Positions 6,757-42,654 of a stretch of 64,000 nucleotides of DNA are shown here, piece after piece. Location of the stretch: NCBI GenBank assembly GCA_963695545.1, contig OY968796.1, forward strand, positions 2,176,001 through 2,240,000, given 5' to 3'. The DNA comes from Terriglobia bacterium. GTDB taxonomy: Bacteria > Acidobacteriota > Terriglobia > Acidiferrales > UBA7541. Made by a program: the position numbers and the translations under genes. The notes below the pieces were generated by a model. It was not told the origin of the DNA and ran no database searches. It saw nothing but the letters and a program-made list of their open reading frames with translations. How positions within the stretch are numbered: position 1 is the first letter of the stretch; every line of letters starts with the position of its first letter.

Positions 6757-6816
6757 AGTATTCGAATACTAACTCATAGATACCTGTTGACCTAGCGTTA
6801 TTAAGCGTGTTATGCT
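6757..6816 (+). promoter_or_regulatory. Palindrome AGTATTCGAATACT and sigma70-like promoter TTGACC-N18-TATGCT
   Basis: Perfect 14-bp palindrome at 6757-6770; -35 at 6787-6792; -10 at 6811-6816; the same layout occurs in copy B. Confidence 0.6.
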
Positions 6817-7290
6817 AGTTTATGAGCCTCGAACAATTCCCCGCGACCGCTCGCCCGCGCAAGAGTCTCGCCACCCGACGGGTCGTTTCGTCCGAGAGCA
6901 ATTCACATTTATTCTCAGAAAGCGAGCATCGGACTAGCGATGCGAGTCCTGAGCGAGCGCGACGTGGCGCGAGTCGAAGGACCCCTCCGCGAATTGAACG
7001 TTCTGCAAAGGACGCGAATCCTGATGCCGCCCTTCAGACAGTGCGAACCAACGGCATAAGGTCGGAACGAACCTCTCTCGAAGAGTCACAACTACCCTTC
7101 AAAATCGCGCCCGCAAATCTCGTACTTTCAGCGGCTTCCGCACCGCTCCAAAAGAGTGCGCAACTCGTTGAAAATAAACATTTGCAAGTCTTTTTTTCTC
7201 AGTCAATTACGCACTCTTTGTCACTCTTTTCCTGGAAGTCCTTTGTTTGCCACTCTTACGCAAAACATACCCGGGGGGTGGGGGGGTACC
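6757..7290 (+). repeat. Composite dispersed element, copy A (operator, promoter, REP mosaic, 129-bp conserved array)
   Basis: 6759-6794 matches the reverse complement of 42619-42654 at 32/36; 7149-7277 matches the reverse complement of 42235-42363 at 114/129 without gaps (manual alignment). Confidence 0.85.
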
Positions 7291-7536
7291 CATTTGATTT
7301 AGCGCCTCGCGCGCGCCCCGAGACAATGTGTCACTTATCGGTGACACGTCGATCAGGAATGGGCGAGCCGGAGGAGATGAAGGGGCGTCAGCGGCGATTG
7401 GGGATGGGGTGACGAGAATAGAACGTTCGGCGGAGGGGCGTTGGCGCGCGCTTTCAGACAGGCCACTAAATCGCGTAGAATGGAGTCTTACTAAGCGTGC
7501 GAAGCTGGCCGGAGCGCCGGACTGTGGGGGAGCGAA

Positions 7537-9030
7537 ATGCCGGAGTGGAAGAAAACATTATTCCTGAATCCGCCGAGCTACGAGGGATTTGATGGCGGCG
7601 CGGGTTCGCGCTATCAGGCGCGGCGCGAAGTGAAATCGTATTGGTATCCGACGTGGCTGGCGCAGCCTGCGGCGATGGTGCCGGGCAGCAAACTGGTGGA
7701 TGCGCCGCCGGACAATCTTTCGGTCGAGCAAGTGGCTCCGATGGCGCGGGATTACGAGCTGGCGATCCTGCACACCAGCACGCCTTCGTTTAAGAATGAC
7801 GCGATGTTTGCCACGCGGCTGAAGGAAGAAAATCCCAGGATTCAGATCGGGATGGTCGGAGCGCACGTGGGCGTGATGCCCATGCAATCATTGAACGGCG
7901 CGCCGGCGGTGGATTGGGTGGGCGTGGGGGAATTCGAGTACGCGTGCCAGGAAATCGCGGCGGGGAAGCCGCTGGCGCAAGTGCAGGGCATCGCGTATCG
8001 CGAAAATGGACGCGTGCAGTTCACTTTGCCGCGGCCGACGCTGGAGGATTTTGACGCGCTGCCGTTCGTGGTGGACGTTTATAAGCGCGATTTGACGATC
8101 GAGCACTATTACAACGGATACTTGAAGCATCCCTACGTTTCGCTCTACACCGGGCGGGGCTGCCGGTCGAAGTGCACGTTCTGTTTGTGGCCGCAGACGC
8201 TGGGTGGTCATCGCTATCGCACGCGCAGCGTGGAGAGCGTCGACGCCGAGATGACGCTGGCCAAGAAATATTTCCCGCAAGTGAAGGAATTTTTCTTTGA
8301 CGACGACACGCTGACCGACGATTTGCCGCGCACCGAACAGATTGCCACGCGCATGTCGCGCATCGGGCTTCAGTGGTCGTGCAACGCCAAGCCCAACGTG
8401 CCGCGGCGCACGCTGGAGATCATGAAGGACAACGGGCTGCGCTTGCTGCTCGTCGGATTCGAGTCCGGCAATCAGGAAATTCTGAACAACATGAAGAAGG
8501 GCACGCGTCTGGATATCGCGCGCAAGTTCGCGAAGGATTGCAAGGAGCTCGGCATCCTGATCCACGGCACGTTCATTCTGGGCATGCCGGGCGAAACGCC
8601 GGAAACCATTCGCCGCACCGTGGAATTTGCGTGCGAAGTCGATCCCGAGACGATTCAGGTTTCGCTCGCCGCGCCGTATCCCGGCACGGAGCTTTATCGC
8701 CAGGCGCACGAGAACGGATGGCTGCAGATTCAGACCGACGATTTGGTGGATACGCACGGCGTGCAGATCGCCGCGCTCAACTATCCCGGCCTGACTTCGA
8801 CGTTCCTGTTCCATTCGGTCGAGAAATTTTATAAACAATTTTATTTCCGCCCGCGCAAAATGTTTTCGCTGGCCGGCGGCATGCTCCGCGATGGGGAAGT
8901 GATGCGCCGCCGCCTCCGCGAGGGCGTGGAATTCTTCAGCTTCCTGTACGCGCATAAGAACGCGCCGTCCTCGGTCGACGTCGCGCCGTCGCTCGCCGGC
9001 GAAACGCCGTCCTCCGGCGCCGGAAGCTGA
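7537..9030 (+). CDS. hpnJ: Hopanoid biosynthesis-associated radical SAM protein
   Basis: KTLFLNPPSYEGFDGGAGSRYQARREVKSYWYPTWLAQ N-terminus; CRSKCTFC motif; hpnI-like gene nearby. Confidence 0.9.
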   Translation: MPEWKKTLFLNPPSYEGFDGGAGSRYQARREVKSYWYPTWLAQPAAMVPGSKLVDAPPDNLSVEQVAPMARDYELAILHTSTPSFKNDAMFATRLKEENPRIQIGMVGAHVGVMPMQSLNGAPAVDWVGVGEFEYACQEIAAGKPLAQVQGIAYRENGRVQFTLPRPTLEDFDALPFVVDVYKRDLTIEHYYNGYLKHPYVSLYTGRGCRSKCTFCLWPQTLGGHRYRTRSVESVDAEMTLAKKYFPQVKEFFFDDDTLTDDLPRTEQIATRMSRIGLQWSCNAKPNVPRRTLEIMKDNGLRLLLVGFESGNQEILNNMKKGTRLDIARKFAKDCKELGILIHGTFILGMPGETPETIRRTVEFACEVDPETIQVSLAAPYPGTELYRQAHENGWLQIQTDDLVDTHGVQIAALNYPGLTSTFLFHSVEKFYKQFYFRPRKMFSLAGGMLRDGEVMRRRLREGVEFFSFLYAHKNAPSSVDVAPSLAGETPSSGAGS

Positions 9031-9350
9031 CCGCGCGCTTGCCGTCGCCCGCGCGTGTCGGGTCTGCGTCGCGGCTTTCGCCGCGTGTCGCGTCGCCGTT
9101 TTCGTCGCGGAAGCGCCGCCGATCAGGTCCCGTCGTCGCCATGAGATTTGTCGCCGCGCCCGGCCGCCGTCGCGTTTTTCTTCGCGGGTTTCGTTGCGGG
9201 TCGCGTTTCCGCTGCGTGCTTCGTCGCGGCAGCGCACCGCCGATCGCGCCGGCCGCGTCGGGCCGCCGTCGTGAGTTTCGTCGCCGCGCCGCGGCCGACC
9301 GCAACGAGCGCGGCATGAGGTAAACTTCGACCGGGCACTGTGCCCATCCC

Positions 9351-9851
9351 ATGCGCTCCGATCGAAGCCTAAGAAGCAAAACCTACATTCTGCTTGCCCT
9401 GATGGTCGTGTTCGGGTCGGTCGGCAACACCGTCCTCGATAAAGGAATGAAGGCCCTCGGCGCCGTCAGTCTCTCGTCCCTCGCTGCAATTCGCGCCGGA
9501 TTTTTCGCCACGATTTCGAGTCCGATCGTTTGGCTCGGCATCGCCTGCATGATCGTCTTCTTCGTCTGCCACATGTTGGCGCTCTCCGGCGCCGACTACA
9601 GTTTCGTGATGCCGTTCTCCGCGCTCACCTACGCGCTCGTGCCGCTGCTCGGATTTCTATTCCTGGGCGAGCACGTGCCCGCGCTGCGCTGGGTGGGAAT
9701 CGTGCTGATCTTCTTCGGCGTGGTGCTCGTCAATCGCACCCCGCCGCGGACCACCGAAACTGTGCGCTCCGCGGAGACCTCGAACGCGATCCGCGCTGCG
9801 CAGTCCGGCGAGGCAATGCGCTCCGCACCTTCCGGCGAGGCCTCGCGCTGA
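9351..9851 (+). CDS. Small DMT/EamA-family membrane transporter
   Basis: Four hydrophobic segments; ALSGADYSFVMP and FLGEHVPALRWVGIVLI motifs. Confidence 0.8.
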   Translation: MRSDRSLRSKTYILLALMVVFGSVGNTVLDKGMKALGAVSLSSLAAIRAGFFATISSPIVWLGIACMIVFFVCHMLALSGADYSFVMPFSALTYALVPLLGFLFLGEHVPALRWVGIVLIFFGVVLVNRTPPRTTETVRSAETSNAIRAAQSGEAMRSAPSGEASR

Positions 9852-9852
9852 C

Positions 9853-11427
9853 ATGCGCGTCGCTGCCATTCTGTTGTTCGTCGTGTTGACCGGCACGGGC
9901 GGTGAAATCGCGCTGGCTCACGCCATGAAAATTGTGGGCGAAGTGCAAACGCTCGGGCTGCGGGATGTGCTGCGCGTGGTCGCGCGCGCGTTTACGGTCG
10001 GCTGGCTGTGGCTGGGAATTGGCCTCATGGCCGCTTCGTTCTTCGCGTTCCTCACGATGCTTTCGTGGTACGAGGTCAGCTTCGTCGTTCCGGCAACTTC
10101 GCTAGCTTATGTCGCCGGCGCCATCGGCGCGTGGTTGCTGTTGCGTGAACATTTGAGCGCGGGACGCTGGTCCGGGATTCTGCTGATTTGCTGCGGCGTG
10201 GCTTTCGCCTGGGCGGATCGCACACCGGCGTGGCTCACTGCGCACAACGTGGTTCACGCCCTGCGCTGGATTGTTCTCGCTGCGGCGCTTGGCCCGCTTT
10301 TCTACTACGCCGTGGGAACATTTGCAGCATGGCGATTTTTTCGCTGGGCGCATCGCGAAGCGCGAGCGAGCGCCGCGGATCGCGTTGCGCCGGCCGCATC
10401 GCGTCCCGCGAGTATTCTGAAGCCGCTGCGAGGACTCGATCCCGAGGCGTACGAAAACTTCGCAAGCTTTTGCCTGCAGGATTATCCCGAGTACGAAATT
10501 CTTTTTGCGGTAAGCGACGCGAGCGATCCCGCCGCGCAAGTCGTCGAGCGCTTGATCGCCGACTTTCCGGAGCGCGCCATTCGTTTGATCGTGACGGGCG
10601 CGGCGGCCGGCGCGAATATCAAAGTCTCAAATCTTTGCCGGCTCGTGCGCGAAGCGCGCTACGACTTGCTGGTCGAAAGCGATAGCGACGTGCGCGTCGC
10701 GCCGGATTATTTGCGCGGCGTCGCCGAGCGCATGGCCGAAGCCGGAGTTGGCGGCGTAACGTCGCTCTACCGCGGAATCGCCGCGCCCAACTTGGTGGCG
10801 GCGCTGGATTGCGTCGGTTCTTCAGCCGCATTTTGCGGGGCGGCGCTGGTGGCGCGTGAGCTTGAAGGTCTGAAATTCATGATGGGCTCGACGATCGCAG
10901 TCACGCGGCAGGTTCTTGCCGAAATCGGCGGATTCGAGGCGCTCGTCGAATTGCACTCCGACGATTACGAACTGGGACGCCGCATCGCCGCGCGCGGCTG
11001 GCGGATTGAATTGACGGCCGAGCCGGTGGAAATGATTTTTCCGAAGGAAACACTAGGCGGCTATCTGCGCCACGAACTGCGTTGGTTCATCGGCATTCGC
11101 CATGTTCGGCCGGGCGGTCACTTGGGCATGTTGTTCACGCACGGATTGCCTCTCGCGATTCTCGCGGCGCTGCTCGCGCCTTCGGCAGCCATCGCGGCGG
11201 CGTATCTCGGCGGCTACGCGGTTCTGCGGTTCGCGATGGCGTGGACCGTCGGCGTGTGGGGTTTGCGCGATCCGGTTGTGCGCCGCAACTGGTATCTTTT
11301 GCCGCTGCGCGATGCGCTCGCGTTCGTGGTGTGGCTCGCGAGTTTTGGAATGAATCGAATCGAATGGCGCGGCAATCGCTTTCGCTTGGAACGCGGGCGC
11401 ATGATTCCGCTCGCGCCGCGCGGTTGA
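9853..11427 (+). CDS. hpnI: Fusion of DMT/EamA domain and HpnI-like GT2/GT21 glycosyltransferase
   Basis: The first ~120 aa are DMT-like (LSWYEVSFVVPATS, LLREHLSAGRWSG). The rest has SILKPLRGLD, QDYPEYEILF, NIKVSNL, SDSDVRV and DDYELG. Confidence 0.8.
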   Translation: MRVAAILLFVVLTGTGGEIALAHAMKIVGEVQTLGLRDVLRVVARAFTVGWLWLGIGLMAASFFAFLTMLSWYEVSFVVPATSLAYVAGAIGAWLLLREHLSAGRWSGILLICCGVAFAWADRTPAWLTAHNVVHALRWIVLAAALGPLFYYAVGTFAAWRFFRWAHREARASAADRVAPAASRPASILKPLRGLDPEAYENFASFCLQDYPEYEILFAVSDASDPAAQVVERLIADFPERAIRLIVTGAAAGANIKVSNLCRLVREARYDLLVESDSDVRVAPDYLRGVAERMAEAGVGGVTSLYRGIAAPNLVAALDCVGSSAAFCGAALVARELEGLKFMMGSTIAVTRQVLAEIGGFEALVELHSDDYELGRRIAARGWRIELTAEPVEMIFPKETLGGYLRHELRWFIGIRHVRPGGHLGMLFTHGLPLAILAALLAPSAAIAAAYLGGYAVLRFAMAWTVGVWGLRDPVVRRNWYLLPLRDALAFVVWLASFGMNRIEWRGNRFRLERGRMIPLAPRG

Positions 11428-11519
11428 CGGCTCGCGCAATCCTGCATAAAGTAGTGTGCGGGTCGTGGCGCGATGATTCGAGTTGCGCACGGCCCGTTTC
11501 TGTCGCCGTGCCTCTCGGC

Positions 11520-11594
11520 TGGGAGGTCGTACAATCGGCAGTACATCAGATTCTGGATCTGATTATCCTGGTTCGAGTCCAGGCCTCCCAGCCA
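11520..11594 (+). tRNA. tRNA-Gln(CTG)
   Basis: Acceptor stem TGGGAGG/CCTCCCA, anticodon arm TCAGA-TTCTGGA-TCTGA, T-loop GGTTCGAGTCC, encoded CCA. Confidence 0.97.
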
Positions 11595-11666
11595 AACTAC
11601 TTCACGCTTACAGGCTGTTCGCCGTGGGACGACGCGGTCGGAGATGCGCGATTTGCGTGAGCGATC

Positions 11667-14330
11667 ATGACAGCTGAAGAATCCCGCCTGGAAGGATCCC
11701 GCAAGCGCACTTCGCATTGGAAGCGCTGGGGTCCGTATCTCTCCGAACGCCAATGGGGCACGGTGCGCGAGGATTACAGCGCGTACGGCACCGCCTGGGA
11801 ATATTTTTCGCACGATCACGCGCGTTCGCGCGCGTATCGCTGGGGCGAAGACGGCATTGCCGGCATTTCCGATCGCCATCAGCACATCTGCTTCGCGCTC
11901 GCCATGTGGAACACGCGCGACTCCATTCTGAAGGAGCGCCTGTTCGGCCTCACTGGAAACGAAGGCAATCACGGAGAAGACGTCAAAGAGTGTTACTTCT
12001 ATCTCGATTCCACACCGACGCATTCCTACATGAAATTTCTCTACAAATATCCTCAAGCTGCGTTCCCATATACGCAGTTGGTCGAAGAGAATCGCCGCAG
12101 GACGCGGATGGACCCGGAATACGAACTGCTGGACACCGGCGTTTTTGAGGAGAGCCGTTACTTCGACGTGTTCGTCGAATATGCGAAGCCATCCGTGGAA
12201 GAGATGCTGGTTCGCGTGACGGCGTTTAATCGCGGGCCCGAGAAGGCCGATCTGGCGTTGCTGCCGACGCTGTGGTTCCGCGACCTGTGGTCCTGGGGAC
12301 GCCGACCGGGGCGTCCGAAACTCTGGCGAGATAAGGAAATCGCCGACGGAGTGGTGATCGGAATCGACGAGTATCGCTACGGCAAGCGCTGGCTGGTGGC
12401 CGAAGGGCGCCCGGAACTGATCTTCACCGAAAATGAGACGAATTTTGCGCGCTTGTTCGGCATGCCGAACCGCACGCCGTACGCGAAGGACGCGTTCCAT
12501 GAATTCGTCGTGCACGGGAATAGCGCCGCCGTGAATCCAGCCGGCACGGGCACGAAGGTGGCGGCGCTCACGCGGCATTCGATTGCGCCGGGCGCGAGCG
12601 CGTCGGTGCGATTGCGATTTACAAATCGCGATCCCACAAAGAGTGCCGGGCCGAAGTCCGGCAAAATGTTTGGGAAGGACTTCGACGAGGTTTTCGCCCA
12701 CCGCATCGCCGAAGCTGACGAGTTTTACGCGGAGCGCATCTCGCCCGAGCTCACGCCCGATGCGCGAAGCGTGCAGCGGCAAGCGCTGGCCGGAATGCTG
12801 CTCACGAAGCAGTCCTATCACTATGAAGTGCGCACGTGGCTCGACGGCGATCCCGCATATTCGCCGCCTCCGCAGCAGCGCAAGCGGGGCCGCAACCACG
12901 ATTGGAAGCATTTGTACAACGCGGATGTGATCTCCATGCCCGACAAGTGGGAATATCCGTGGTACGCCGCGTGGGACCTGGCCTTTCACACGGTGGCGCT
13001 GACGCTTGTCGATCCGGACTTCGCGAAAGAACAGCTGATCCTGCTGCTACGCGAATGGTACATGCATCCGAGCGGAAAATTACCCGCGTATGAGTGGGCC
13101 TTCGACGACGTGAATCCGCCGGTGCACGCCTGGGCGGCGTGGCGCGTTTACAAAATCGAAAAAAGAATACGCGGGCGCGCCGACCGCAATTTTCTTCAGC
13201 GCGTGTTTCACAAACTGCTTCTGAATTTTACCTGGTGGGTGAACCGCAAAGACGTGAAGGGAATGAACGTGTTTGAGGGCGGGTTCCTGGGCCTCGACAA
13301 TATCGGCGTTTTCGACCGCTCGAAGCCGCTGCCGACCGGCGGGCACATGGAGCAGTCCGACGGCACGAGCTGGATGGGCATGTATTGCCTAAACATGCTG
13401 GCGATGGCGCTGGAACTCGCGCGCGACGACCCCGCCTACGAAGACGTGGCCAGCAAATTCCTCGAGCACTTCGTCTACATCGCGCAGGCCATGAACGAAC
13501 ACGGCGAGGACGGCACGTCACTATGGGATGAAGAGGACGGCTTTTACTACGACGCGCTGCATTTTCCCGATGGTTCGCAGCGCTTCATGAAAGTGCGCTC
13601 GATGGTGGGATTGATTCCACTGTTCGCCACGGAGACGCTGGAGCCGGAAATGCTTTCGTCGCTTCCCGGATTTACGGCACGCATGCAATGGTTTCTCGAC
13701 AATATGCCAGCGGTATCTCCCTACGTGGATATGAGCCAGAATTCGGCGGGCGGCCCGCGGCGATTGCTTTCGCTGGTGACGCGCCCGCGCCTTCTGCGCA
13801 TTCTGCACAAAATGCTGGATCGGGAGGAGTTCCTTTCCGACCACGGCATTCGATCGCTTTCGCGCATTCACCTGCAAAATCCCTACGTGCTGCGCATCGA
13901 CGGCACGGAGTATCGCGTGGGATATGAGCCGGGCGAGAGCACGACCGGGACGTTTGGCGGCAACTCGAACTGGCGAGGGCCGATTTGGTTCCCCGTGAAT
14001 TTCCTGCTCATCGAAGCGCTGCAAAAATTCCATTATTATTACGGCGATCAGCTCACCGTGGAATTTCCCACCGACTCTCGCCAGCCGATGAGCCTGTGGC
14101 AAGTTGCAGCCGAGCTTTCGCGCCGATTGACGCATATTTTTCTGCGCTCGAAGGACGGAGCGCGCCCTGTGTACGGCGGCTGCCAGACGTTTCAGTCCGA
14201 TCCACAATGGCGCGATTTGATATGGTTCTACGAATATTTCAACGGCGACACCGCCGCGGGCCTGGGCGCGAATCATCAGACGGGATGGACGGGCCTGGTG
14301 GCGAAATTGCTCGAGCAAAGCGGAGAATAA
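11667..14330 (+). CDS. MGH1-like glucosidase (GH63-related)
   Basis: [55 protein letters not shown]. Confidence 0.9.
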
Positions 14331-14333
14331 CCG

Positions 14334-15050
14334 GTGCCATTTGACGACAAAGTCGTGCTGGTCGCGGGCGGAACCGGGGCATTGGGCCGGGAAGTGGCCA
14401 TGGCCTTTCTGGAAGCGGGCGCGCGCGTCGCGGTCACCTATCAGCACGAGGAAGAGTTTGCCGCGTTCGTCGCGGCGGCCGAGCGAACCGGCTCGGCTGT
14501 GCCGGAGGGCGCGTCACTCGACGTGACCGATCTTGCGGCAGTCGAAAAATATGTTGCCGAGCTTGCGGCGCGGTACGGGCGCCTCGATATCCTGGTGAAT
14601 GCGGTGGGCGGCTACGCGGGCGGCAAGAATGTTTGGGAAGCGGGCGCCGCGGACTACGATCGGATGATGACGCTCAATTTCAAATCAGGGTTCGCTCTCG
14701 CGCACGGCGTTGTTCCGGTGATGATCCGGCAGAATCGCGGCTGGATCGTCAACGTGGCGTCCAAAGCGGCATACGGACATTCGCCGGGCGCGGCGTTGTA
14801 CGCGGCGTCAAAAGCCGCGGCGCTGGTGCTGATCGAATCGCTAGCCGAAGAGGTGAAGCCTTACAACATCAACGTGAATTCGATCGTGCCGTCGATCTTC
14901 GATACCGCGGCCAATCGCCGCGCGATGCCCAAGGCCGACTTCTCCAAATGGCCGAAACCTGAGGAGATCGCTCGCGTTGTGTTATTTTTGTGCTCGGAAG
15001 ATGCGCGGCTGATTAATGGCGCCGCAATTCCGGTTTACGGCCGCAGCTAG
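14334..15050 (+). CDS. SDR family oxidoreductase
   Basis: GGTGALG Rossmann motif; catalytic YAASK. Confidence 0.9.
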   Translation: MPFDDKVVLVAGGTGALGREVAMAFLEAGARVAVTYQHEEEFAAFVAAAERTGSAVPEGASLDVTDLAAVEKYVAELAARYGRLDILVNAVGGYAGGKNVWEAGAADYDRMMTLNFKSGFALAHGVVPVMIRQNRGWIVNVASKAAYGHSPGAALYAASKAAALVLIESLAEEVKPYNINVNSIVPSIFDTAANRRAMPKADFSKWPKPEEIARVVLFLCSEDARLINGAAIPVYGRS

Positions 15051-15059
15051 GGAGCGCCG

Positions 15060-15641
15060 CTAAGATCGACGCGCTTCTTCTTCCAGCTCGATTAGGATTT
15101 TCTTTCCCTGCGCGGCGTCGACCAGAAAAAAATTGATGCGCGCGCGATCCGCGCCCGGGCGCGCTTGCGGATAAATCGGCTGGAGCGCGAATCGCGATTT
15201 CAGTATCTCGGTCGCGCGATCCACGTCCGACGTCGCGATCTCAGTGTGCTGGATGTTGCTGCCAAATTTCCTGAGAAAGCGCGCGATCGCGCCGTCGCCC
15301 GAAGCGTCGCGAGTGGTCAGCACTTCGATACGCGCTTCCACTCCAACATTGACATGAAATTCCAGCGCGTCTTGCTCCGGCGGCACGTCGGCGAGGCGCG
15401 GCGATCCGTTGGCGCTGCGAATTGCGGCGAAGCGACCGGGCTCGACCGCGAGTCCGGCGGTGAATATGGGCGCGCTAATTAGGCGGGCAAATTCGGGATC
15501 CTGCGACCACGCGCGCACAAGTGGCTCGGCTGTATCGCACGCGATGCGGAAAATTGAGAGCGCGGCGGCTTCGCGTTGGTCGCGGCGCGCGCTTGCGAGC
15601 GATGAAATCGCCGCGGCGATGGCATCTTCGCGCTCGGACAT
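15060..15641 (-). CDS. Hypothetical protein with VOC/glyoxalase-like C-terminus
   Basis: AIARFLRKFGSNIQHTEIATSDVD...KILIELEE resembles methylmalonyl-CoA epimerase-like VOC proteins. Confidence 0.6.
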   Translation of the reverse strand: MSEREDAIAAAISSLASARRDQREAAALSIFRIACDTAEPLVRAWSQDPEFARLISAPIFTAGLAVEPGRFAAIRSANGSPRLADVPPEQDALEFHVNVGVEARIEVLTTRDASGDGAIARFLRKFGSNIQHTEIATSDVDRATEILKSRFALQPIYPQARPGADRARINFFLVDAAQGKKILIELEEEARRS

Positions 15642-15646
15642 TCGCG

Positions 15647-16564: not shown

Positions 16565-16628
16565 CCTAGCAGAACTGCGGAAGAATTTTGATGCGCGGCG
16601 CGCGCGAGATCGCGCGTGTGATACTAGG

Positions 16629-17837: not shown

Positions 17838-18094
17838 GTCAGTTGTATAGCCTATTCGAGGCCCTTGTGTCTCTGGCGTTCCGGCTCACTGCACAGCTTA
17901 GATTCTACCCTGCCAGAAAGGATGCCTCCCGCCCGAAGCTGACACGCTGGGTAATCCATTGTAACATACGACGTTTCCGTCGGCAGGCTGGTTTCCCGTG
18001 TGGGCCTGGCCAGCGCCCGCGCGGCGCCCCGCGCGTGTAGTGTAGTATAGACGAGGCGCGCAAATCCTGTCCTGCGAATCGGACACTCCAAAAA

Positions 18095-21462: not shown

Positions 21463-21464
21463 CC

Positions 21465-22520: not shown

Positions 22521-22541
22521 TCGCTTCGTCGAATTGGAGCC

Positions 22542-24892: not shown

Positions 24893-24898
24893 CAACCG

Positions 24899-28154: not shown

Positions 28155-28313
28155 GGCACCATCGTAGCCTATTTCGCATCGTCGGGGCTTGCGGCGGCGG
28201 CGCAGCCGGCGGGGCTGGGCAAATTGATTCTTGTTCGCGGGCGCGCCTATACTGCGGCCAGAGGATGCGAGCGCGAAGCCGCGACGCAGAATCGCTAGGG
28301 TGCGACAAAGAAT

Positions 28314-30169: not shown

Positions 30170-30538
30170 TTCGCCGTTGCGATCGGCTCGGACCGCGTTC
30201 GGCCGAATGTGATTTTCCGTGCGGCACATTGCGCCGGAGATCCGCGGTTCGTCGTGCACGCGGCGCGGGCCCATGAGGCGGGTATTGCGCGAACGATCGT
30301 TGGTGGATAGAATTCCGCCCCGTCCGGCCTGATCCATGGGGAAAGGACGCTTTCGGCGGCTCATGCTCGTTCTACCGCGACCGGGATCCCTATGGAGCGG
30401 ACCGTTTTCATCCGGACTCTTCTTAGGAACCAGAATGACGGACCCGCTTACGCGCCGTGGCCACCCGCGCTCTGTCTTATCGCGCGGTTCGCGATTCGGC
30501 GGCGGCCCGCGAAGAGAAGAGCACTCCGAGGAGGAAAA

Positions 30539-31597: not shown

Positions 31598-31690
31598 AAG
31601 CGCCGCATCGCGGCTCTCGGGCGCATCGAAGCGCGTCGGCGGATGGGTCGCCTTCGACGGAGCGTGATTTCTTTGCATCCGGGAGGCGCG

Positions 31691-32560: not shown

Positions 32561-32615
32561 GAAATCGCAAGCGGGTCGACGGACCGCTCGGCGTTTCGCA
32601 TACCAGGCTTTTCCA

Positions 32616-34227: not shown

Positions 34228-34319
34228 TTTGGCCCGGCCCAACGGGCGACGCGCATCTTACCGTGCCGGTCCAGAATGCTCCAGTCAGGGTTCTGGCGTG
34301 GCGGAAACGCCGCGTGGAG

Positions 34320-35351
34320 CTACGGCCAAATCTTGTTCAGGATCATGGAGAGGCGGACGCCGGCTTTGGCCAATTGCTCTTCGATGACGGGCGCGGCGGC
34401 GTCTTGATAATCCTGGCCGATCTGTTCGTTTAGCGCGAGCATTCGCTCGCCGATGTGATTGTTGTCAGCGCAGGAATTGATTGCGACCGGCGATTCGATC
34501 GGAATCTTCACGGGCAAATCGCCGTATGAAACTTTCTCCGCGAGCTCGTGGCTCTCCCATCCCCAATTGTCGAAGATCATGCCGCCGTGCTGCCAGGATG
34601 CGATCTGGGATTTGAATTGCTGGTCGAGTTGCGCGGCGAATTGATCCAGGGATTGGCCTTCCGATATTCGCCCCAGGATCCTGGAGTCCCACGCGTTGTG
34701 CAGATTCGGATAGTAGGCAATCACAGGGTGCGGAATATAGGGGGGGCCGGGCATGTACGATGTCACCTTCGTGGCCTTGGGAGGAGCGCCGAAAAAGGTG
34801 ACGGGAACGCAATTGCCGCCCTGATCGCTGTTGGTGGTGCAGTGCAGCGGCTGGTGAATGTCTCCGGCAAAGTGGATCACGAATCGCAGGGCGTTGGCTT
34901 TGGCTGCCGGATCGGCTCCCGGAGAATTGAGGATTGCGATCTGAGCTTTGAGCGCGGCCGTGATGCAGCTCGTGGAGGCGGAGCAATACTGATCGATATT
35001 GCGCCGCTTTGCGCCGCGGGGAATATCGAAGAAATGCCAGCCCTCGGTTTCCGGGTGACCGGTACGGTAATCGTCGGCCCAAGTGGAGGCGTCGACGATC
35101 GGGTCTGCGCTCACCGGCTGGCAATATCGCTTGAGATCGGGATCAATGGGATTGTCTTTCAGGATTTTGTCGGCCATCGCCAGCGCGCGCGGGTTGAGAT
35201 GCATTTCGGCGATGAGCGCGACGGTCTGATGGCCTTCGCAGCCCCACGCGCGCGCCTGGGGAGTGGCCGCAACGAAGCAGAAAATCGTGATTAGGATGGC
35301 AGGGGTAAGGATGCGTTTCACCGAAGACCTCCTGGGGCGTAGCATCGACAT
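34320..35351 (-). CDS. Secreted S1/P1 nuclease
   Basis: Signal peptide followed by WGCEGH, WADD, WHF, HFAGDIHQPLH, GGN, NLHNAWD, LAKAGVRL. Confidence 0.93.
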   Translation of the reverse strand: MSMLRPRRSSVKRILTPAILITIFCFVAATPQARAWGCEGHQTVALIAEMHLNPRALAMADKILKDNPIDPDLKRYCQPVSADPIVDASTWADDYRTGHPETEGWHFFDIPRGAKRRNIDQYCSASTSCITAALKAQIAILNSPGADPAAKANALRFVIHFAGDIHQPLHCTTNSDQGGNCVPVTFFGAPPKATKVTSYMPGPPYIPHPVIAYYPNLHNAWDSRILGRISEGQSLDQFAAQLDQQFKSQIASWQHGGMIFDNWGWESHELAEKVSYGDLPVKIPIESPVAINSCADNNHIGERMLALNEQIGQDYQDAAAPVIEEQLAKAGVRLSMILNKIWP

Positions 35352-35507
35352 AATGATAGTGCAGCAACGCCTGGGAGCAAAGTTTGCGGAGTTTTCCGCG
35401 TCCGATCGCGCCCGCGGAGCGGAACCTGGTCTTCGGGCCGGTCACTGACCGCGCACGTTTGGAGATGTTTGGGGCGCGCGTACAGAACCGAGGGCTAGAA
35501 TAGAGGC

Positions 35508-35654
35508 ATGGAGAAGAAGATATTCTGGATTACGTTCACGGTTCTCGGACTGATCGCGGATTTCGCGCTGCCGCTGTGGTGGGCGGTGATCGCCACGATT
35601 CCGATCGGCTATGCGAGCTGGTGGCTCGCGTACCGCAGCGGCTGGCTGGGCTGA
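35508..35654 (+). CDS. Small 48-aa membrane protein (absent from the ORF track)
   Basis: AGAGG immediately before the ATG; MEKKIFWITFTVLGLIADFALPLWWAVIATIPIGYASWWLAYRSGWLG; third codon positions mostly G/C. Confidence 0.7.
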   Translation: MEKKIFWITFTVLGLIADFALPLWWAVIATIPIGYASWWLAYRSGWLG

Positions 35655-35764
35655 CGATCTATCCTCCTTCGAGTCTCCTCGAACACAGTTTGATCCGCCG
35701 TAAGTTTGAAATTCTTCAGTTTCGATTGATCCGGACGCGAAGCGACGAATATACTTCGGGCGTT

Positions 35765-36193
35765 ATGGAGCCCCGGATCAGCATCATTACTCTTGGCGTG
35801 AAGGACCTGGAGCGCTCTTTGCGCTTCTATCGAGACGGCCTCGGATTGCCGACGACGCGGCGGGCGGAGCAGGGAATCATTTTCTTTCAAACTTCCGGAG
35901 CGTGCCTTGCTCTCTACCCCTACCCTGAACTCGCAAAGGACGTATCGGAAGCCTTTCTGGTCGAGAAGTCGAAATTCACGGGCATCACGCTGGCTCATAA
36001 CGTGCGGCGCAAGGAAGACGTGGACAGCGTCCTGCGACAGGCCGAGTTGGCGGGCGCCAAGATCGAAAAGGCCGCTGCAAATACGGATTGGGGCGGGTAT
36101 AGCGGCTATTTTTCCGATCCGGACGGCTATCTTTGGGAAGTGGCGTGGGGAGCATTCGAGATTCGGGACGACGGAAGTTTGATCATTACCTGA
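35765..36193 (+). CDS. VOC/glyoxalase family protein
   Basis: MEPRISIITLGVKDLERSLRFY...WGGYSGYFSDPDGYLWEVAW. Confidence 0.9.
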   Translation: MEPRISIITLGVKDLERSLRFYRDGLGLPTTRRAEQGIIFFQTSGACLALYPYPELAKDVSEAFLVEKSKFTGITLAHNVRRKEDVDSVLRQAELAGAKIEKAAANTDWGGYSGYFSDPDGYLWEVAWGAFEIRDDGSLIIT

Positions 36194-36263
36194 GCGATGC
36201 CGGGCGCGCGGCAGGCTCGGGAATTCCCCTGTTCAAACTGGGCGGGCAAGCGGATGATCCGGG

Positions 36264-36306
36264 AGGCGAATAATGTATTTGCTTTTTCTTCGCCTCGTGG
36301 TAGGAT
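36264..36306 (+). promoter_or_regulatory. recA promoter with candidate LexA site
   Basis: AGGCGAA...TTTGCTT-TTTC-TTCGCCT overlapping the -35 and spacer; -10 TAGGAT; matches the lexA promoter repeat. Confidence 0.55.
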
Positions 36307-36417
36307 GTCGGGCGTGGTGACGCGAAAAACAACTTTGCCCTGCTCCATAGACTTTCTGGTAAACTTGGCGACCGCAGGCAGCCTCGCGTCCCCGAACTGC
36401 CCCCATCGAGGTGAGTT

Positions 36418-37545
<1,128 letters not shown>

Positions 37546-37747
37546 TTTTGGCTGGCCCCAATCGAGATATTAGCCGCCGAAATTGGATCGCAGAGCGGCT
37601 GACACTGGCCAATCGTACAGGTACGTTCAAGCACCGTGGTGCAACGTTGAGCCTTGCCCGCCGCATCTCAGTTTACATAGAATAGACGCAGGTAGGCTTT
37701 CCTCGCGGCCGGGCAATTCAGGACCCGCGGTAAGTCACCGGGCCCTT

Positions 37748-38932
37748 ATGCGGATACCCAACCCTATTCGGCGGGCTCTGGCGATTGTGGCGTGCGCGAT
37801 GTTCCTTTGCGTGCCGCCTGCTCCATTGTGGAGCGCGGGGGCCGCGCCTCGTCCGGGAACGACGACTTCGACTACGACAACGAGGACCGCGCGAAAGCGC
37901 AGCGTAACTCGTTATGGCGTGCCGACGTACGCCGATTCCACAATCGGCGATGACACGGAATACGACGATCCGATTGTGCGCCAGGCCGCGGTCGACGCGC
38001 TGGGGCGCTTCAATGGCGCGGTGGTGGCGATCGATCCGAATAACGGCCGTATCCTCACGGTCGTGAATCAGCAACTTGCGTTTTCCGCGGGATTCATTCC
38101 TTGTTCGACGATCAAGCCGGTGATCGCGCTGGCCGCGCTCGAGCAGGGCGTAATCAACCAGGACAGCATGCTCGAGGTGGCGCGCCGCCGGTACATGAAT
38201 TTGACCGAGGCGCTGGCGCACTCGAACAACGAATTCTTTGCGAGTTTGGGCCGCGAGATGGGCTTCGACACGGTGCTGCACTACGCTCAAATGATGGGCC
38301 TGGGCGAGCGCACCGGATATAACATTCCAGAAGAACAGGCTGGCGTGTTGCCGACGGCGCCGCCGCTGAATGGTGGCGTCGGGCGGATGTCCAGCTTCGG
38401 CGAAGGCATTCAGATCACGCCGTTTGAATTGGGCTCAGTGGTCGCGACGATCGCGAATGGCGGAACGATGTACTACTTGCAATATCCGCGTACGCAGGAA
38501 GCGCGCGACAACTTTGAGCCGCGCATCAAGCGGCAGCTGGCGATCGAATCGCTGCTGCCCGAGATTCGCGACGGCATGCTGGCCGCCGTGCTGTACGGCA
38601 CAGCGCAGCGAAGTTGGGACTACGACGATAACGAGCAGCCGCTGGGCAAGACTGGCTCGTGTTCAGATTCGGCTTCGCGCATCGGCTGGTTTGCTTCCTA
38701 CGCCGACGAACTGCATCCGCGCATCGTGCTCGTGGTGCTGATGCGCGGTCACAACCACGTGGTCGAAGGCCCGATGGCCGCGGGAATTGCCGGGCGCATT
38801 TATCACCGCTTGAACGAAGAAAACTATTTCGCTTCGGAACTGCCCGCCGGGGAAACGAGACCTTCGATTCCCGCCGCGACCGCCGCTTCCGCGACGTCCG
38901 ACGCCTCGGGCGCAGCCGGATCCGTCCGCTAG
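37748..38932 (+). CDS. Penicillin-binding transpeptidase-domain protein
   Basis: SxxK (STIK), SxN (SNN) and KTG motifs; signal peptide. Confidence 0.85.
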   Translation: MRIPNPIRRALAIVACAMFLCVPPAPLWSAGAAPRPGTTTSTTTTRTARKRSVTRYGVPTYADSTIGDDTEYDDPIVRQAAVDALGRFNGAVVAIDPNNGRILTVVNQQLAFSAGFIPCSTIKPVIALAALEQGVINQDSMLEVARRRYMNLTEALAHSNNEFFASLGREMGFDTVLHYAQMMGLGERTGYNIPEEQAGVLPTAPPLNGGVGRMSSFGEGIQITPFELGSVVATIANGGTMYYLQYPRTQEARDNFEPRIKRQLAIESLLPEIRDGMLAAVLYGTAQRSWDYDDNEQPLGKTGSCSDSASRIGWFASYADELHPRIVLVVLMRGHNHVVEGPMAAGIAGRIYHRLNEENYFASELPAGETRPSIPAATAASATSDASGAAGSVR

Positions 38933-39035
38933 GCGCGACCACTCTCCGTCTTTCGCTGTTCTCGCATTTTTCCCTCACACGTTCGCGGTTTGAGGTAGGA
39001 TGTGCGCTCACCGTTCGTCTCGCCGGAGGAATGTG

Positions 39036-40085
39036 ATGCGCTTTGTGAAAATCCTGGGCTACACAGTACTCGTGCTGCTCGCGGTGCTCGCCGTGGGAAT
39101 CACGTTCACGATTGGCTGGCGGCCGTTCATTGGTCCGAAGGCGCGGCCGCTGACTGATCGCAAATTCGATGTAACGCCAGCGCGGCTGGAGCGCGGCCGG
39201 TACCTTGTGGAGAACGTTGCCGGCTGCATGGATTGCCATTCGCAGCACGATTGGACGCAGCACGACAGGCCGATCCTCCCCGGCATGGAAGGCGCCGGCG
39301 GCAACATGCCCTTGGCCGGCTTGCCGGGCGTCGTGAATCCGCCGAATATAACGCCGGATCCCGAAACCGGCGCGGGCACCTGGACCGACGACCAACTCGC
39401 GCGCGCCATCCGCGAAGGAATTGGCCACGACGGCCGCGCGCTGTTTCCGATGATGCCGTACCACGATTTCCGCAGCATGTCGGATGAGGACTTGGCTTCG
39501 GTCGTGGTATACCTGCGCTCGCTGCCGCCGGTGCACAACGTGGTTCCTCCCACGCAGATAATTTTCCCGGTGAAGTATTTGATGCGCAGCGTTCCGCAGC
39601 CGCTGACCGCGCCGGTTCCGGAACCTGATCTTTCCACTCCCGTAAAGCGCGGCGCGTATCTTGTGACAATCGCGGGTTGCCGAGACTGCCATACGCCGGA
39701 AGACAAGCATGGCAATTCCATCACGAAACTCGATCTTGCCGGCGGTTTTGTTTTGGACGGGCCTTGGGGAAAAGTGGCTTCCGCGAATATCACTCCTGAC
39801 CCGAGCGGCATTCCCTATTACAGCGACGTGCTTTTTCTGCAGGCTCTCCGGAGTGGCTACGTCGGATCGCGCAAGCTTTCGCAGATCATGCCCTGGGCCA
39901 CATTTCGCGGCATGACCGATCAGGATTTGCTCTCGATCTTCGCTTATCTGAAGACTGTTCCGCCGATTCATCACCGCGTGGACAACTCTTTGCCTCCCAC
40001 ACTGTGCCCGCTGGACGGAAACATGCATGGCGGCGGTGATGGCAACGCGGCGCCGAGTGCAAGCTCGAGCGGCACATCGAACTGA
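39036..40085 (+). CDS. Di-haem c-type cytochrome
   Basis: CMDCH and CRDCH; repeated NITPD; N-terminal transmembrane helix. Confidence 0.88.
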   Translation: MRFVKILGYTVLVLLAVLAVGITFTIGWRPFIGPKARPLTDRKFDVTPARLERGRYLVENVAGCMDCHSQHDWTQHDRPILPGMEGAGGNMPLAGLPGVVNPPNITPDPETGAGTWTDDQLARAIREGIGHDGRALFPMMPYHDFRSMSDEDLASVVVYLRSLPPVHNVVPPTQIIFPVKYLMRSVPQPLTAPVPEPDLSTPVKRGAYLVTIAGCRDCHTPEDKHGNSITKLDLAGGFVLDGPWGKVASANITPDPSGIPYYSDVLFLQALRSGYVGSRKLSQIMPWATFRGMTDQDLLSIFAYLKTVPPIHHRVDNSLPPTLCPLDGNMHGGGDGNAAPSASSSGTSN

Positions 40086-40100
40086 GAATCGAATCACGGG

Positions 40101-42065
40101 CTAGTCCTGATTCGCGCCGCTGAATGCGGCGCCCTGTGCGGCAAGGACGGCCGGAAGTTTCTCCGGGTGGTCGACGAGATCAAGTACGCCCACGCGAATA
40201 TCGACCGGAGCTCCGAAAAATTCGCGCTGATCGGAAGGGAGAGGGGGGCCTCCCGGGCTGCCGGCTGCGGGGATCGGCGCCGGAAGCTGTACGGCGTACA
40301 TGCTGCCGCCCGCGAGCGCCTCATGCGGGTACTCCATGATCCAGGCGCAATTGTGCGTATCAAGAATCATGTTGGCCGAGAGCACCACCCACTGGCCCTG
40401 GTCCGCGGGCGTGGGCTGCTGGCAATTCCACAGCCGCGCTTGCGGGGCGACCACGCTGGGATCGAAGAGACCGTAAGAGTCCACCTCGATTCTTTGTAGG
40501 CCGCGCTGTTCGGCAAAGCGCGCCACTTCGGGCATGGCCTGGCCCCAATCAACATTCGCGTCGTTCACCAGCGTGTATGCGGGATGCTCGAAGCTGAGAG
40601 CGTTGACATAGGGGAAGTAATACGGATACGTGCGCACTGCCGTGAACAAGCAGCAGAGAGCCATCACAGCGGCGAGTGCGGCCGTAAGGCGCTCCGGCGC
40701 GGGAGCGGACGCGCGAAGCCGCTTCAACATTTGGGGCAGGGGAGCCAGCATTAAAATCAGCAGAACTACCGGAATGGTGAAATGGCGGAAGCTGATATCG
40801 AGGCGGCTCGCCATGCAAACAGCCGTGAACACGATGAGCGAGGTCCACAACGCCCGCCAGTGCAAGCCCCATTCCGCGGGAATGACGGACGGACCGCCCG
40901 GCTCGCGACGCCGACGATGCAGCGCAACGGCGATTGCCAGGACGAGCAGTCCGAGGAATCCCAGCGGAGATTTGAAAAGGAAAACGACCGGAAAATAGAA
41001 CCAGACCCCGTGCTTATAGGCGTGACTCAGGATGAAGGTTGGCCGGCTTGAGGTGATCGCGAGCATGAAAAGCCCGCGCAGATAGAGCCACGGCGGCATG
41101 AGCAGACGGCGCAGAATCGCCGCCGCCGGCCAGTGACCGAGGCGATCGAGAGAGTCCGTCGGCTGGCGCAAAGAAAGGATGAAATAAACCACGTAAACGA
41201 AAAGAGCGGCCCACAGGATGCCGCTCCACGTCGCTCGCCGGCGAAGCCGGCGCCAGGCGCGCGCTTCCGGTTTTGTGCCAGGCTGGCCAGGCACAGGGCG
41301 CCAGAGGGTGCTGAGGGTAAACGCCGCGAAAGCGAAGAACAGAATTCCCGCTGAGAATTTGGAGAGCAGCGCGCCCGCCAGATTCAGAGCGAACCTCATG
41401 ACATTCCCGCGGCTGGGCTCCCGCCACACGCCGGCAAACGTCCATAACGTTGTGAGGGAAAACAGAGTGATCGCCAGGTCAGTGAGGACGAGGGGGCCGA
41501 ATGTGAGAAAGACGGGCATGGCGACGTACAGGCTAAGGCAGAGCAAACCGCCCCAGCCGCCTCCGAGACGCCGCCCGTACACAAAAACAATCCAGCCCAG
41601 CGCGAGCGTTAGAAGCAGCATGGGCGCGCGGGCCCAGGCAAGAGTTGTCGCCGGATCGTTCCAGCGCGTTTGAACCGAAGCGCCAAAGAAAACCTGTCCG
41701 AAATACGCAGGGAAGAATTCCTTACTCATGATCCAAGAAGGGGTCGAATAATCGGCGCGCACTCCGCGAATGACCAGCGGCAATGCCGCGAGAACTTTTG
41801 CCAGCGGCGGATGCTCTTCGTTCAAACGCAAATCGAGCCGTTGGAGATAACTTACTCCGGCACCGATGTGCGTCGGTTCGTCGAACGTGGCGGATTCGCG
41901 GCGCGCGGCCCCGCCCGCCAGAACCGCCATGAGCAGGAGCAGGAGCGCGGCCACAATCGGAAAGAAAACGCTCTGCTTGCCTTGAGCGCGGCCGTTGTCG
42001 CGCGGAACGGGCGGATTCGCGGGCACCGAGTTCTCCTCAGAGTCTGAAATCTGGTGCAAGACCAT
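40101..42065 (-). CDS. ArnT/GT39-like membrane glycosyltransferase
   Basis: ATFDEPTH, NEEHPPLAK, multiple transmembrane segments, DANVDWGQ; start uncertain. Confidence 0.8.
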   Translation of the reverse strand: MVLHQISDSEENSVPANPPVPRDNGRAQGKQSVFFPIVAALLLLLMAVLAGGAARRESATFDEPTHIGAGVSYLQRLDLRLNEEHPPLAKVLAALPLVIRGVRADYSTPSWIMSKEFFPAYFGQVFFGASVQTRWNDPATTLAWARAPMLLLTLALGWIVFVYGRRLGGGWGGLLCLSLYVAMPVFLTFGPLVLTDLAITLFSLTTLWTFAGVWREPSRGNVMRFALNLAGALLSKFSAGILFFAFAAFTLSTLWRPVPGQPGTKPEARAWRRLRRRATWSGILWAALFVYVVYFILSLRQPTDSLDRLGHWPAAAILRRLLMPPWLYLRGLFMLAITSSRPTFILSHAYKHGVWFYFPVVFLFKSPLGFLGLLVLAIAVALHRRRREPGGPSVIPAEWGLHWRALWTSLIVFTAVCMASRLDISFRHFTIPVVLLILMLAPLPQMLKRLRASAPAPERLTAALAAVMALCCLFTAVRTYPYYFPYVNALSFEHPAYTLVNDANVDWGQAMPEVARFAEQRGLQRIEVDSYGLFDPSVVAPQARLWNCQQPTPADQGQWVVLSANMILDTHNCAWIMEYPHEALAGGSMYAVQLPAPIPAAGSPGGPPLPSDQREFFGAPVDIRVGVLDLVDHPEKLPAVLAAQGAAFSGANQD

Positions 42066-42221
42066 AGGGCTGCTGCTCTCCGATGTCAACGTCGGGTTGC
42101 GCCGGCGGCTGGACGTTGAATTCAAAGGGGAATTGAACGGTACGCGCGGTAACGGCTCGATGCTTTGAGTTTTCCGGGAGTTGGCGGAAAAGCTTCAAGT
42201 CGCGGCTGAGGTTTGTGGTCG

Positions 42222-42654
42222 AGGGGGGTATACACCCCCGGGTATGTTTTGCGTAAGAGCGGCAAATACGGGACTTACAGGAAAAGAGTGACAAAGAGTG
42301 CGCAATTGATTGAGAACAATGGATTTGCGAGTGTTTGTTTTCAATGAGTTGCGCACTCTTTTGTATCGCCCTGAAAATAAAGGGGTTGGTGGGGCCACGT
42401 TGTAGAGATGAGTGCGTTCCTGTCGCAATGAATCGATGATATTTGGTAGGACGGGAACGGCGCCGCGAGGACGACGGGGTGTCAAGGACAACGCGGAGGC
42501 CTGCCTGTCGGCAGGCAGGCGTCAGAGAACGCGGAGGCTCGCGGAGATCCCTCGCTCGTTCGCCGGGCGGCGAGTTTTGTGCCAGGTTCATGCGATAGAT
42601 TAGCATGGATGATTACTGTAGGTCAACAGGTATTTGTAGGTTAGTATTCGAATA
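42222..42654 (-). repeat. Composite dispersed element, copy B
   Basis: Inverted homologue of 6757-7290: TATTCGAATA palindrome, TTGACC-N18-TAATCT, REP pieces, and the 129-bp array containing ~27-bp inverted arms. Confidence 0.85.

Follow-up and report, generated by a model that had tools for sequence, protein, structure and literature searches.

The window analysed here is a stretch of 64,000 nucleotides from the chromosome of a soil acidobacterium with relatives among the Acidiferrales (G000, the genome under study; genes were called by a simple in-house caller, with some errors). It harbors two copies of a cassette, A and B, on opposite strands (Table 1). As a sequence-only reading of the window had stated, the heads of the two copies are identical at 32 of 36 positions and the tails at 114 of 129 without gaps. 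BLASTN gave the same figures, and the similarity of the tails is beyond chance (E 5.6e-41 against the genome). The TATTCGAATA palindrome was located in both heads, and both also show the described order of TTGACC (6787; 42626), N18, TATGCT or TAATCT, N5 and ATG (6822; 42591). Between A and B the middles are indeed unrelated, but BLASTN found relatives of each in other copies. The term "REP-like" for the insert in the middle of copy A is our own label. Some of the A/T-rich units in the tail of copy A match the IHF consensus. At position 42223, the contigs from all four DNA runs that were inspected have one C fewer.

Table 1. Features at the two cassette copies and at the copy-A site (positions in the window).
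Feature	Position	Strand	Basis
tolC-family gene bordering the ancestral site on the left; has the upstream skew rich in C, 4-fold G/C 84/160	637..2127	+	
Accessory island upstream of copy A: 475-aa unknown, TcmP, DUF5131	2128..6665	-	
Cassette copy A (tail of type 1)	6757..7291	+	sequence, BLASTN
TATTCGAATA palindrome, element-specific putative operator	6759..6768	+	extended-motif counts
Predicted sigma-70-type promoter, extended -10	6787..6816	+	sequence
Leaderless open frame across the tail of copy A	6822..7412	+	ORF
REP-like palindromic insert in the middle of copy A, common to several other copies	6940..6990	+	BLASTN
Conserved tail of copy A; inverted arms 7151-7160 and 7210-7219, repeated A/T-rich units	7149..7277	+	
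Terminal CCGGGG/G-run of copy A	7271..7291	+	
hpnJ, bordering the ancestral site on the right; empty-site skew kept, 144/90	7537..9030	+	
Leaderless open frame across the tail of copy B, 184 aa	42037..42591	-	
Cassette copy B (tail of type 1)	42222..42666	-	sequence, BLASTN
Terminal CCGGGG...TACCCC palindrome of copy B	42222..42241	-	
Conserved tail of copy B; arms start at 42361 and 42302	42235..42363	-	
REP-like palindrome inserted in the middle of copy B	42499..42520	-	
Predicted sigma-70-type promoter of copy B, extended -10	42597..42626	-	
Two TTCGAA sites of copy B: 42666-42661 and palindrome TATTCGAATA 42654-42645	42645..42666	-	

The element had been described as present twice and inverted. 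The 4.16-Mb chromosome contains about 110 copies (110 were counted), A and B being two of them, and the inverted orientation is incidental, as the 90 type-1 tails split into 45 on each strand. Head and tail are linked, with a head found on 100 of the 110 tails. The cassette comprises, in this order, a predicted sigma-70 promoter flanked by TTCGAA, a start codon where +1 is predicted, an open frame, a repeat tail and a G-run, and measures 159-631 nt from start codon to end. Elements account for 117 of the 163 genome-wide matches to the extended TATTCGAATA motif. We also considered TTCGAA as an SOS box; a motif search at recA/lexA gave nothing, and few matches precede ordinary genes. The frame was open in 93 of the 98 copies with a start codon, whatever was encoded, while 4.6 were expected. 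The frames of A and B are open as well, so that the element is not plainly "non-coding", although the peptide of the copy-A frame is unconserved among copies and has no Pfam family. The copies are spaced evenly, near 38 kb (CV 0.56 versus 0.99 by chance), which was matched by 0 of 20000 and 0 of 5000 nulls. The identity of a tail to its nearest neighbour had a median of 87% and a maximum of 96% (81 tails). No description of the family was found in the literature searched; passages of PMC5900883 treat acidobacterial prophages and IS, not the cassette.

The two ideas offered in the sequence-only reading, a non-coding RNA family and a non-autonomous mobile module, fared differently. A multicopy structured RNA would be in line with the predicted upstream promoter and with type-1 tails that fold better than shuffles (mean z -2.15). 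However, no Rfam match was obtained at copy A or B (at the gathering threshold the window contains only a tRNA at 11520), and no compensatory base pairs were seen in 51 type-1 and 14 type-2 tails. The consensus energy of the 51 type-1 tails is just -3.7 kcal/mol, type-2 tails reach only z -0.85, the frame stays open, and the arms that pair do not vary, which a protein-bound DNA palindrome would be expected to show. A structured RNA is thus unsupported and, in our view, very improbable. Of the mobile module, more was retained: head and tail are linked, the unit carries a predicted promoter, and it moves on an evolutionary time scale, since the copy-A site is empty or filled differently within the genus. 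A classical non-autonomous transposon is not supported because the ends are not inverted repeats, near-identical copies are lacking and the spacing is even. Heads and tails are unlike each other in all copies compared, and the 25 longest inverted repeats listed in the window include none from head to tail and one that is internal to a tail. As claimed, transposase or integrase families are not adjacent; a scan of 12 neighbouring ORFs detected none. Like the cassettes, REP/BIME, MITEs and mobile promoters are dispersed intergenic repeats that are polymorphic between relatives. The cassettes differ in that their two ends do not form inverted repeats, in that copies keep apart rather than cluster, and in the skew footprint of kilobase scale that surrounds them.

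The proposed comparison with empty sites was possible for copy A. Its site is vacant in two of five genomes of the same genus (G002 and G004), occupied by a different subfamily in G003 and by other DNA in G001 and G005. The accessory island, with genes for which PDC-M41A and PDC-M30B/M41B are the best PADLOC models, is missing at the empty sites. These are highly diverged and the island intervenes, which bears on any target-site duplication; at copy B, orthologues of the downstream gene are too distant to define the site. The tolC gene is skewed in G000 and unskewed at the empty sites of the relatives (p 0.0004 and 0.009). The skew footprint arrives together with the element. Bulk soil contigs from four DNA runs of one study, in which depth is flat per contig, showed neither an empty-site joint nor a pile-up of ends. 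Strain-divergent contigs next to copy A (with 32 differences over 1420 nt and 47 over 1545 nt) had no counterpart next to copy B and were given no weight.

Bacteria are taken to have a single origin that sets strand skew. In G000, a kernel placed on the element positions accounted for 58% of the variance in genome-wide synonymous G/C skew (R2 0.575; shifted-null maximum 0.051). The skew is independent of gene strand, which rules out a gene-strand artefact as its source, and element-linked skew was reproduced in other genomes. An origin-like flip is offset by about 4 kb downstream of the elements (median 4.1 kb), and an up-flip within -3 to +12 kb was found at 100 of the 110 elements; by segmentation, copy B is among the ten without one. 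The shift in base composition is strong and one-sided, spans about 50 kb around the elements and is lopsided (amplitude ratio 1.6, bootstrap 1.4-1.9). The position of the flip depended weakly on the end of the downstream co-oriented run (rho 0.27, p 0.03) and was independent of the direction of the first downstream gene. KOPS-like motifs are 68% leading, showing normal replichores, and the oriC term of the 4-fold skew model was -0.001. Since normal replichores exist without 4-fold skew, the local skew process is not the ordinary replisome. Saw-tooth skew also occurred in G017, G023 and G021, where elements were undetectable by the models used; in G016 the head cluster described below is present, elements were undetected and the track is nearly flat.

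Such a pattern might arise if the cassettes were nucleoprotein sites organising the chromosome, that is, domain boundaries with strong transcription and DNA-bending proteins, the skew resulting from local supercoiling and strand exposure. The even spacing, the near-consensus predicted promoter and the IHF-like matches in type-1 tails (100 versus about 14 in shuffles) agree with this. However, type-2 tails have no excess of the IHF consensus (1 versus 3) and yet the same skew as type-1 tails, and neither the polar 50-kb footprint nor the cargo gene is explained. We regard this explanation as quite improbable.

The cargo gene, which encodes a CCCH zinc finger plus a helical part, is kept by 4 of the 110 copies. 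All four full cargo genes of the genome begin 34-44 nt past the G-run, and none lies elsewhere. In other genomes, the terminal motif was found upstream of 52 of 72 homologous cargo loci. A C-terminal tail motif is present in 111 of 263 cargo homologues and also in the ORF immediately upstream of the large terminase gene (TerL) in 7 of 10 fetched phage head clusters and in 7 of 25 IMG/VR loci, compared with a background of 6 among 3116 called G000 proteins. HHalign of the cargo family against the 92-aa G000 homologue of the ORF upstream of TerL gave 86% over 17 columns. None of the four cargo proteins had a Pfam or PHROG match at E 1, including small terminase (TerS) families. The structure model (pLDDT 74) is a helical hairpin, with generic helical bundles as best hits in the fold search (Z 6.6). 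IMG/VR yielded neither the cargo family nor the type-2 tail pattern, and 947 kb around 66 IMG/VR capsid loci contained no elements. According to excerpts of PMC6854486, TerS is poorly conserved in sequence, and the C-terminal helix of the RcGTA TerS is needed for the protein to interact with TerL.

The cassettes could also be what is left of a selfish satellite-like unit of promoter, site and small-terminase-like gene, which in the past spread together with a helper phage; most copies would now persist as promoters of the gene that follows, and the skew would be a scar of breaks or repair. This would fit the polymorphic sites within the genus, the 106 of 110 copies without the gene, the 76 of 110 that face a co-oriented gene, the upstream flank poorer in GC and coding DNA, and a copy number that varies sharply among genomes. 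As in SaPI/PICI satellites, the small gene would redirect the large terminase of a helper to its own site. Unlike in these satellites, no integrase or replication module lies beside the examined copies, most copies are geneless and the target is the host chromosome; integrase and replication genes of the PICI type were absent from the elements, which in the window are flanked by genes of the host or of the island. The even spacing and the frames kept open in diverged copies point to continuing selection on each copy. Furthermore, near-identical recent copies are lacking, and at the 34 of 110 elements facing an opposite gene the flip position is unchanged. A satellite origin of this kind is therefore rather unlikely.

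The head cluster is GTA-like, conserved, single-copy and syntenic. Its capsid gene is single-copy and 55-92% identical in 13 of 40 relatives, and TerL was found in 14 of 40. The gene set is conserved in all ten fetched clusters, four of which have a host flank in common. PF03237 detected the single TerL of G000, where PF03354, PF05876 and PF04466 gave nothing. TerL and capsid genes are intact in G000, but the cluster looks damaged: a connector-like gene has an in-frame stop, a portal-like gene is split by a frameshift that is possibly an assembly error, and an IS sits between these genes and the capsid gene. The portal-like gene, named for its position and size, had no notable sequence match in Pfam, PHROG or PDB. 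In the 90 contigs of G018, elements, as many as 14 cargo hits and the skew are present, but neither TerL nor capsid was found.

Skew alone does not distinguish packaging from local replication. Cassettes acting as local non-canonical origins, by run-off or R-loop priming, would use promoter and G-run to prime or to load helicase and would fire a few kb downstream. The zinc-finger protein would be the initiator and the tail repeats its iterons, and the link to the phage cluster would reflect amplification preceding packaging, as in Bartonella. The sign of the flip and its presence near 100 of the 110 elements agree with origins, and origin interference would fit the even spacing. Iteron replicons similarly have a repeat array with a small DNA-binding gene behind it. 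Of 100 heads, 34 contain the DnaA-box variant of the organism at fixed distances, as a single box and not as a cluster, the cargo finger shares the cysteine spacing of the MCM10 finger (non-significant, E 0.096), and one cluster gene has a weak match to a replication initiator (phrog_1408, E 3e-4). Against origins, the flip is offset and lopsided, the DnaA box has no effect on skew (-0.31 with, -0.28 without), genes near the flip converge rather than diverge, just one of the 10 other clusters fetched showed the initiator-like gene, and the tail motif common to the gene in TerS position is left unexplained. We consider local origins the main alternative, though an unlikely one. Excerpts of PMC2697382 describe a likeness in the Bartonella BaGTA with run-off replication, where a site of phage origin influences the choice of host DNA that is transferred and variable genes gather nearby, but BaGTA has one origin and not about 110 polar sites; the main text of that paper does not contain the word "skew".

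The cargo gene sits only directly behind the G-run and shares a C-terminal motif with the gene in TerS position. We favor the cassettes as candidate DNA packaging start sites, kept by the host, of the domesticated phage head cluster, with a probability of roughly one half. The zinc-finger protein, made from the few gene-bearing copies, would be an adaptor small terminase, binding in trans to the tail repeats of every copy and bringing in the large terminase via its own tail. Transcription with a trailing ribosome would open or load the site, and the ribosome would account for the absence of stops, whatever the frame encodes; in gene-bearing copies, transcription would couple into the cargo gene. 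DNA would be cut near the site or a few kb beyond it and packaged. A recipient would integrate the piece through single-stranded ends and outward repair synthesis, exposing the bottom strand leftward and the top strand rightward, so that many rounds may write the skew. Even spacing would yield coverage of the whole chromosome.

Several observations count against packaging. Co-occurrence of elements and cluster is imperfect (G018; G016; G017, G023 and G021), the cargo gene is present in just 4 of 110 copies and the G000 cluster looks damaged, the gene downstream of copy A has the skew of the empty sites and copy B has no up-flip, and 18 of the 25 IMG/VR loci have no tail-bearing ORF before TerL by the motif used. 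The 4-kb offset of the flip also exceeds the 120-1000 bp over which known pac cleavage spreads (excerpts of PMC11260489). The same excerpts indicate that conserved host pac-like sites directing transduction are possible: P22 pac-like sites in Salmonella are oriented and conserved, and were proposed to be selected for this role. They are nine short mimics used by the TerS of a free phage, whereas the cassettes are 200-700 bp long with promoter, open frame and a gene of their own. RcGTA, DsGTA and CcGTA share with the proposed system a conserved, single-copy phage head cluster in the host chromosome and a small terminase C-terminus that docks the large terminase; according to excerpts of PMC6854486 and PMC11841831, GTAs are not known to have a discrete sequence at which packaging starts, and their TerS has no DNA-binding domain. 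Unlike in GTAs, the start would here be provided, for putative particles, by about 110 dedicated cassettes together with a separate zinc-finger adaptor.

In one chromosome of an abundant uncultured soil lineage, more than half of the synonymous-skew variance is thus explained by a single dispersed element family. If the cassettes are packaging start sites, the gene-transfer agent here would likely be site-directed and not random. Tentatively, and with somewhat less than even confidence, we propose that a phage was domesticated in Acidiferrales into a site-directed gene-transfer system, in which the chromosome is covered by about 110 cassettes at even intervals, and a zinc-finger adaptor encoded in cassettes guides the terminase, or a prior local replication step, to them. 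Frequent rounds of this process, not replication from oriC, would then set strand composition. The clustering of accessory genes and candidate defence genes immediately upstream of the sites would be accounted for as well. The elements give exact coordinates and directions where packaging or local DNA synthesis should begin, and either mechanism would be new.

BLASTN and ungapped comparison of copies A and B confirmed the reported identities of 32/36 for the head and 114/129 for the tail, and the palindrome and the promoter-to-ATG spacing were found in both copies exactly as described in the sequence-only reading. That reading had the cassette present twice; the family comprises 110 copies in this genome (G000), the window occupying positions 2,176,001-2,240,000 of a single 4.16-Mb contig. 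An iterated tail profile of G000 found 90 type-1 copies, 45 per strand, and the head profile was linked to 84 of these. Further heads were revealed on a second type of tail; once overlapping hits had been merged and two split copies had each lost their left half from the count, this type contributed another 20 copies. The head scored on 100/110 tails, which upholds the proposed head-tail linkage; at least one head in G000 lacks a tail. Tail identity to the nearest neighbor had a median of 87% and a maximum of 96% (81 tails). Gaps between the 110 copies averaged 37.8 kb with a CV of 0.56, and equal evenness was reached in 0/20000 random placements and in 0/5000 nulls confined to gene junctions or to gaps >150 nt.

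The predicted +1 was a start codon in 98/100 heads (ATG 62, GTG 36), at a single fixed offset in 95. From this codon the frame was open through to the G-run in 93/98; the other two frames were open in 7 and 12 (shuffled expectation 4.6). Although the frame was kept open, type-1 tails were read in all three frames (22/30/29), so that translation, not the peptide, appears to be kept. An extended TTCGAA motif was element-specific (117/163 sites in elements). Type-1 tails held 100 matches to the IHF consensus versus about 14 in shuffles, and type-2 tails showed no enrichment of such matches. A role of the cassettes as structural sites seems very unlikely to us. Rfam held no match for the element, no compensatory base changes were found in the tails, and the element failed the defining tests for an ncRNA; we give hardly any credence to the ncRNA family suggested earlier. 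Under the other suggestion, a non-autonomous mobile element, it likewise failed the defining tests of a MITE, and it failed those of a satellite. REP-like repeats of the same kinds as in the window also occurred as insertions within the middles of 12 elements and between genes of the head cluster. Contigs 2-3% diverged from the window flank copy A on both sides (1073-2492, 7256-8801), while the stretch from 9.3 to 20 kb is nearly identical; none were seen around copy B.

Skew was determined as G/C at four-fold-degenerate sites, read on the element's strand. It was about -0.32 upstream, the same for genes of either strand, crossed zero near +4 kb downstream and peaked at +0.15. An up-flip of the skew lay within -3 to +12 kb of 100/110 elements. 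By sensitive segmentation, an element pointed at 121/229 up-flips (38% at random), against 52/229 down-flips. A deconvolved element kernel, lopsided and extending from -26 to +30 kb, explained 57.5% of the skew variance in 8-kb bins (shifted null ≤5.1%, strand-shuffled 28%). The oriC term in the skew model was -0.001, even though the replichores from dnaA are reflected in gene strand (54.6%) and in KOPS-like motifs (68%). This suggests that ordinary replication forks do not produce skew of this kind here and that the local skew-making process is a different one. In other genomes, raw skew at 72/80 mutually non-independent loci, those with usable upstream sequence, was -0.10 on the upstream side and stood at +0.096 in the +4-6 kb interval, where 44/51 were positive; the profiles of relatives G015, G018 and G001 agreed with G000, and that of G022 was weak. 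By itself, the skew is equally compatible with a local origin and with a fragment that was packaged and recombined. A DnaA-box variant that is present at dnaA and also between dnaA and dnaN occurred once in 34/100 heads. That the cassettes are local replication origins is possible, if rather unlikely, and this reading can be combined with that of packaging-start sites.

At the copy-A site, the search for empty sites was successful: in G002 and G004 the left flank gene tolC abuts the right flank gene hpnJ. G003 carries a different element subfamily there, cargo gene included, and G001 and G005 carry other DNA in which the element was not detected. The G/C of tolC was 84/160 in G000 versus 106/100 and 47/46 at the empty sites, and that of hpnJ was 71/144 in G003 versus ~140/88 in the other four relatives; therefore, the skew arrives with the element. 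Contrary to the average element pattern, hpnJ in G000 retained the empty-site value (144/90), so the flip of copy A sits at the element itself. A candidate defense pair, TcmP and DUF5131, occupies the 4.5 kb upstream, in accordance with the lower GC and coding density on the upstream side of elements generally. IS1595-family transposons carrying passenger genes (DUF3800 in one case) split three type-2 copies, and in two of these the same palindrome shows a duplicated TTAAA. Elements of G001 and G018 are also broken by inverted-repeat ends of a similar kind, so the cassette may be a target of these transposons.

Features and their coordinates in the window, in G000 and in relatives
Feature	Position	Strand	Remarks
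Complete head lacking tail	L018 ~6260-6340 (G000 1,205,336)	minus	4 kb from, and facing, complete copy
GTA-like head cluster	L101-L103, G000 3,384-3,419 kb		near terminus
TcmP + DUF5131 pair	window 4876-6665		PADLOC candidate defense models PDC-M41A and PDC-M30B/M41B
Gene for 475-aa protein of no assigned family	window 3402-4829		downstream of TcmP/DUF5131 pair
REP-like palindromic repeats	window 2136-2330, 8960-9290, 44248-44500		intergenic
IS1595-interrupted type-2 copies	L015 2289-4701, L016 2087-5343, L017 from ~2330		G000 245-248 kb, 343-347 kb, 3686 kb
Saw-tooth skew without detectable elements	G017:C3 300-500 kb, G023:C1 100-300 kb, G021:C13 and C3		
Element-like tails	L168-L177, G022:C13 300-500 kb		tandem type-2 + type-1 arrangement

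The single TerL (large terminase) of G000 is clustered with a capsid gene, a lytic transglycosylase and virion-like genes. This GTA-like head cluster is conserved over nine or more of the family's genera, and literature searches found no description of it. The capsid was present in 13/40 relatives and TerL in 14/40; neither was found in the 15 relatives that belong to the more distant family. All 10 fetched clusters retained the gene set, four with a common host flank. The cargo gene, whose only full copies in G000 stand behind four of the cassettes, starts 34-44 nt past the G-run and encodes 139-170 aa with a predicted CCCH finger and helical hairpin; its ATG is overlapped by the leader-frame stop in two of the four. 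The protein had no family in Pfam or PHROG, fold searches with its model gave no specific match, and IMG/VR held no match to its family. Two database searches returned 663 and 2186 homologs, the named ones mostly from Candidatus Acidiferrales, and 21/40 relatives had matches to the gene. The motif of the cargo family forms the C-terminal end of the ORF directly upstream of TerL in 7/10 clusters and at 7/25 IMG/VR loci (background 6/3116 proteins), in ORFs with otherwise dissimilar bodies. The G000 homolog of this ORF (92 aa) is relocated within the cluster, and its tail has 12/17 residues in common with the cargo protein. By analogy with RcGTA TerS (small terminase), which cannot bind TerL without its C-terminal helix according to PMC6854486, the shared motif might have a docking role.

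We favor the cassettes as packaging-start sites, with a probability of about 0.5. Against this speak G018, with elements and skew but no head cluster found, and G016, with a cluster but no detected elements and slight skew. G017, G023 and G021 showed saw-tooth synonymous skew, but G000-based models found no element in the 200-300 kb examined; these regions may conceal other cassette types, and the whole G017 genome held 22 head-pattern matches. In G022, the cluster was not found and the skew was nearly flat at element-like tails. TerL is fragmented in G001, G010 and G023, and the G000 cluster is damaged, which also counts against packaging. That the cassettes are a remnant appears improbable. 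As packaging-start sites, the cassettes would form a system that differs from known GTAs by having dedicated sites. The element itself is real, selected and lineage-wide, with a large mutational footprint.
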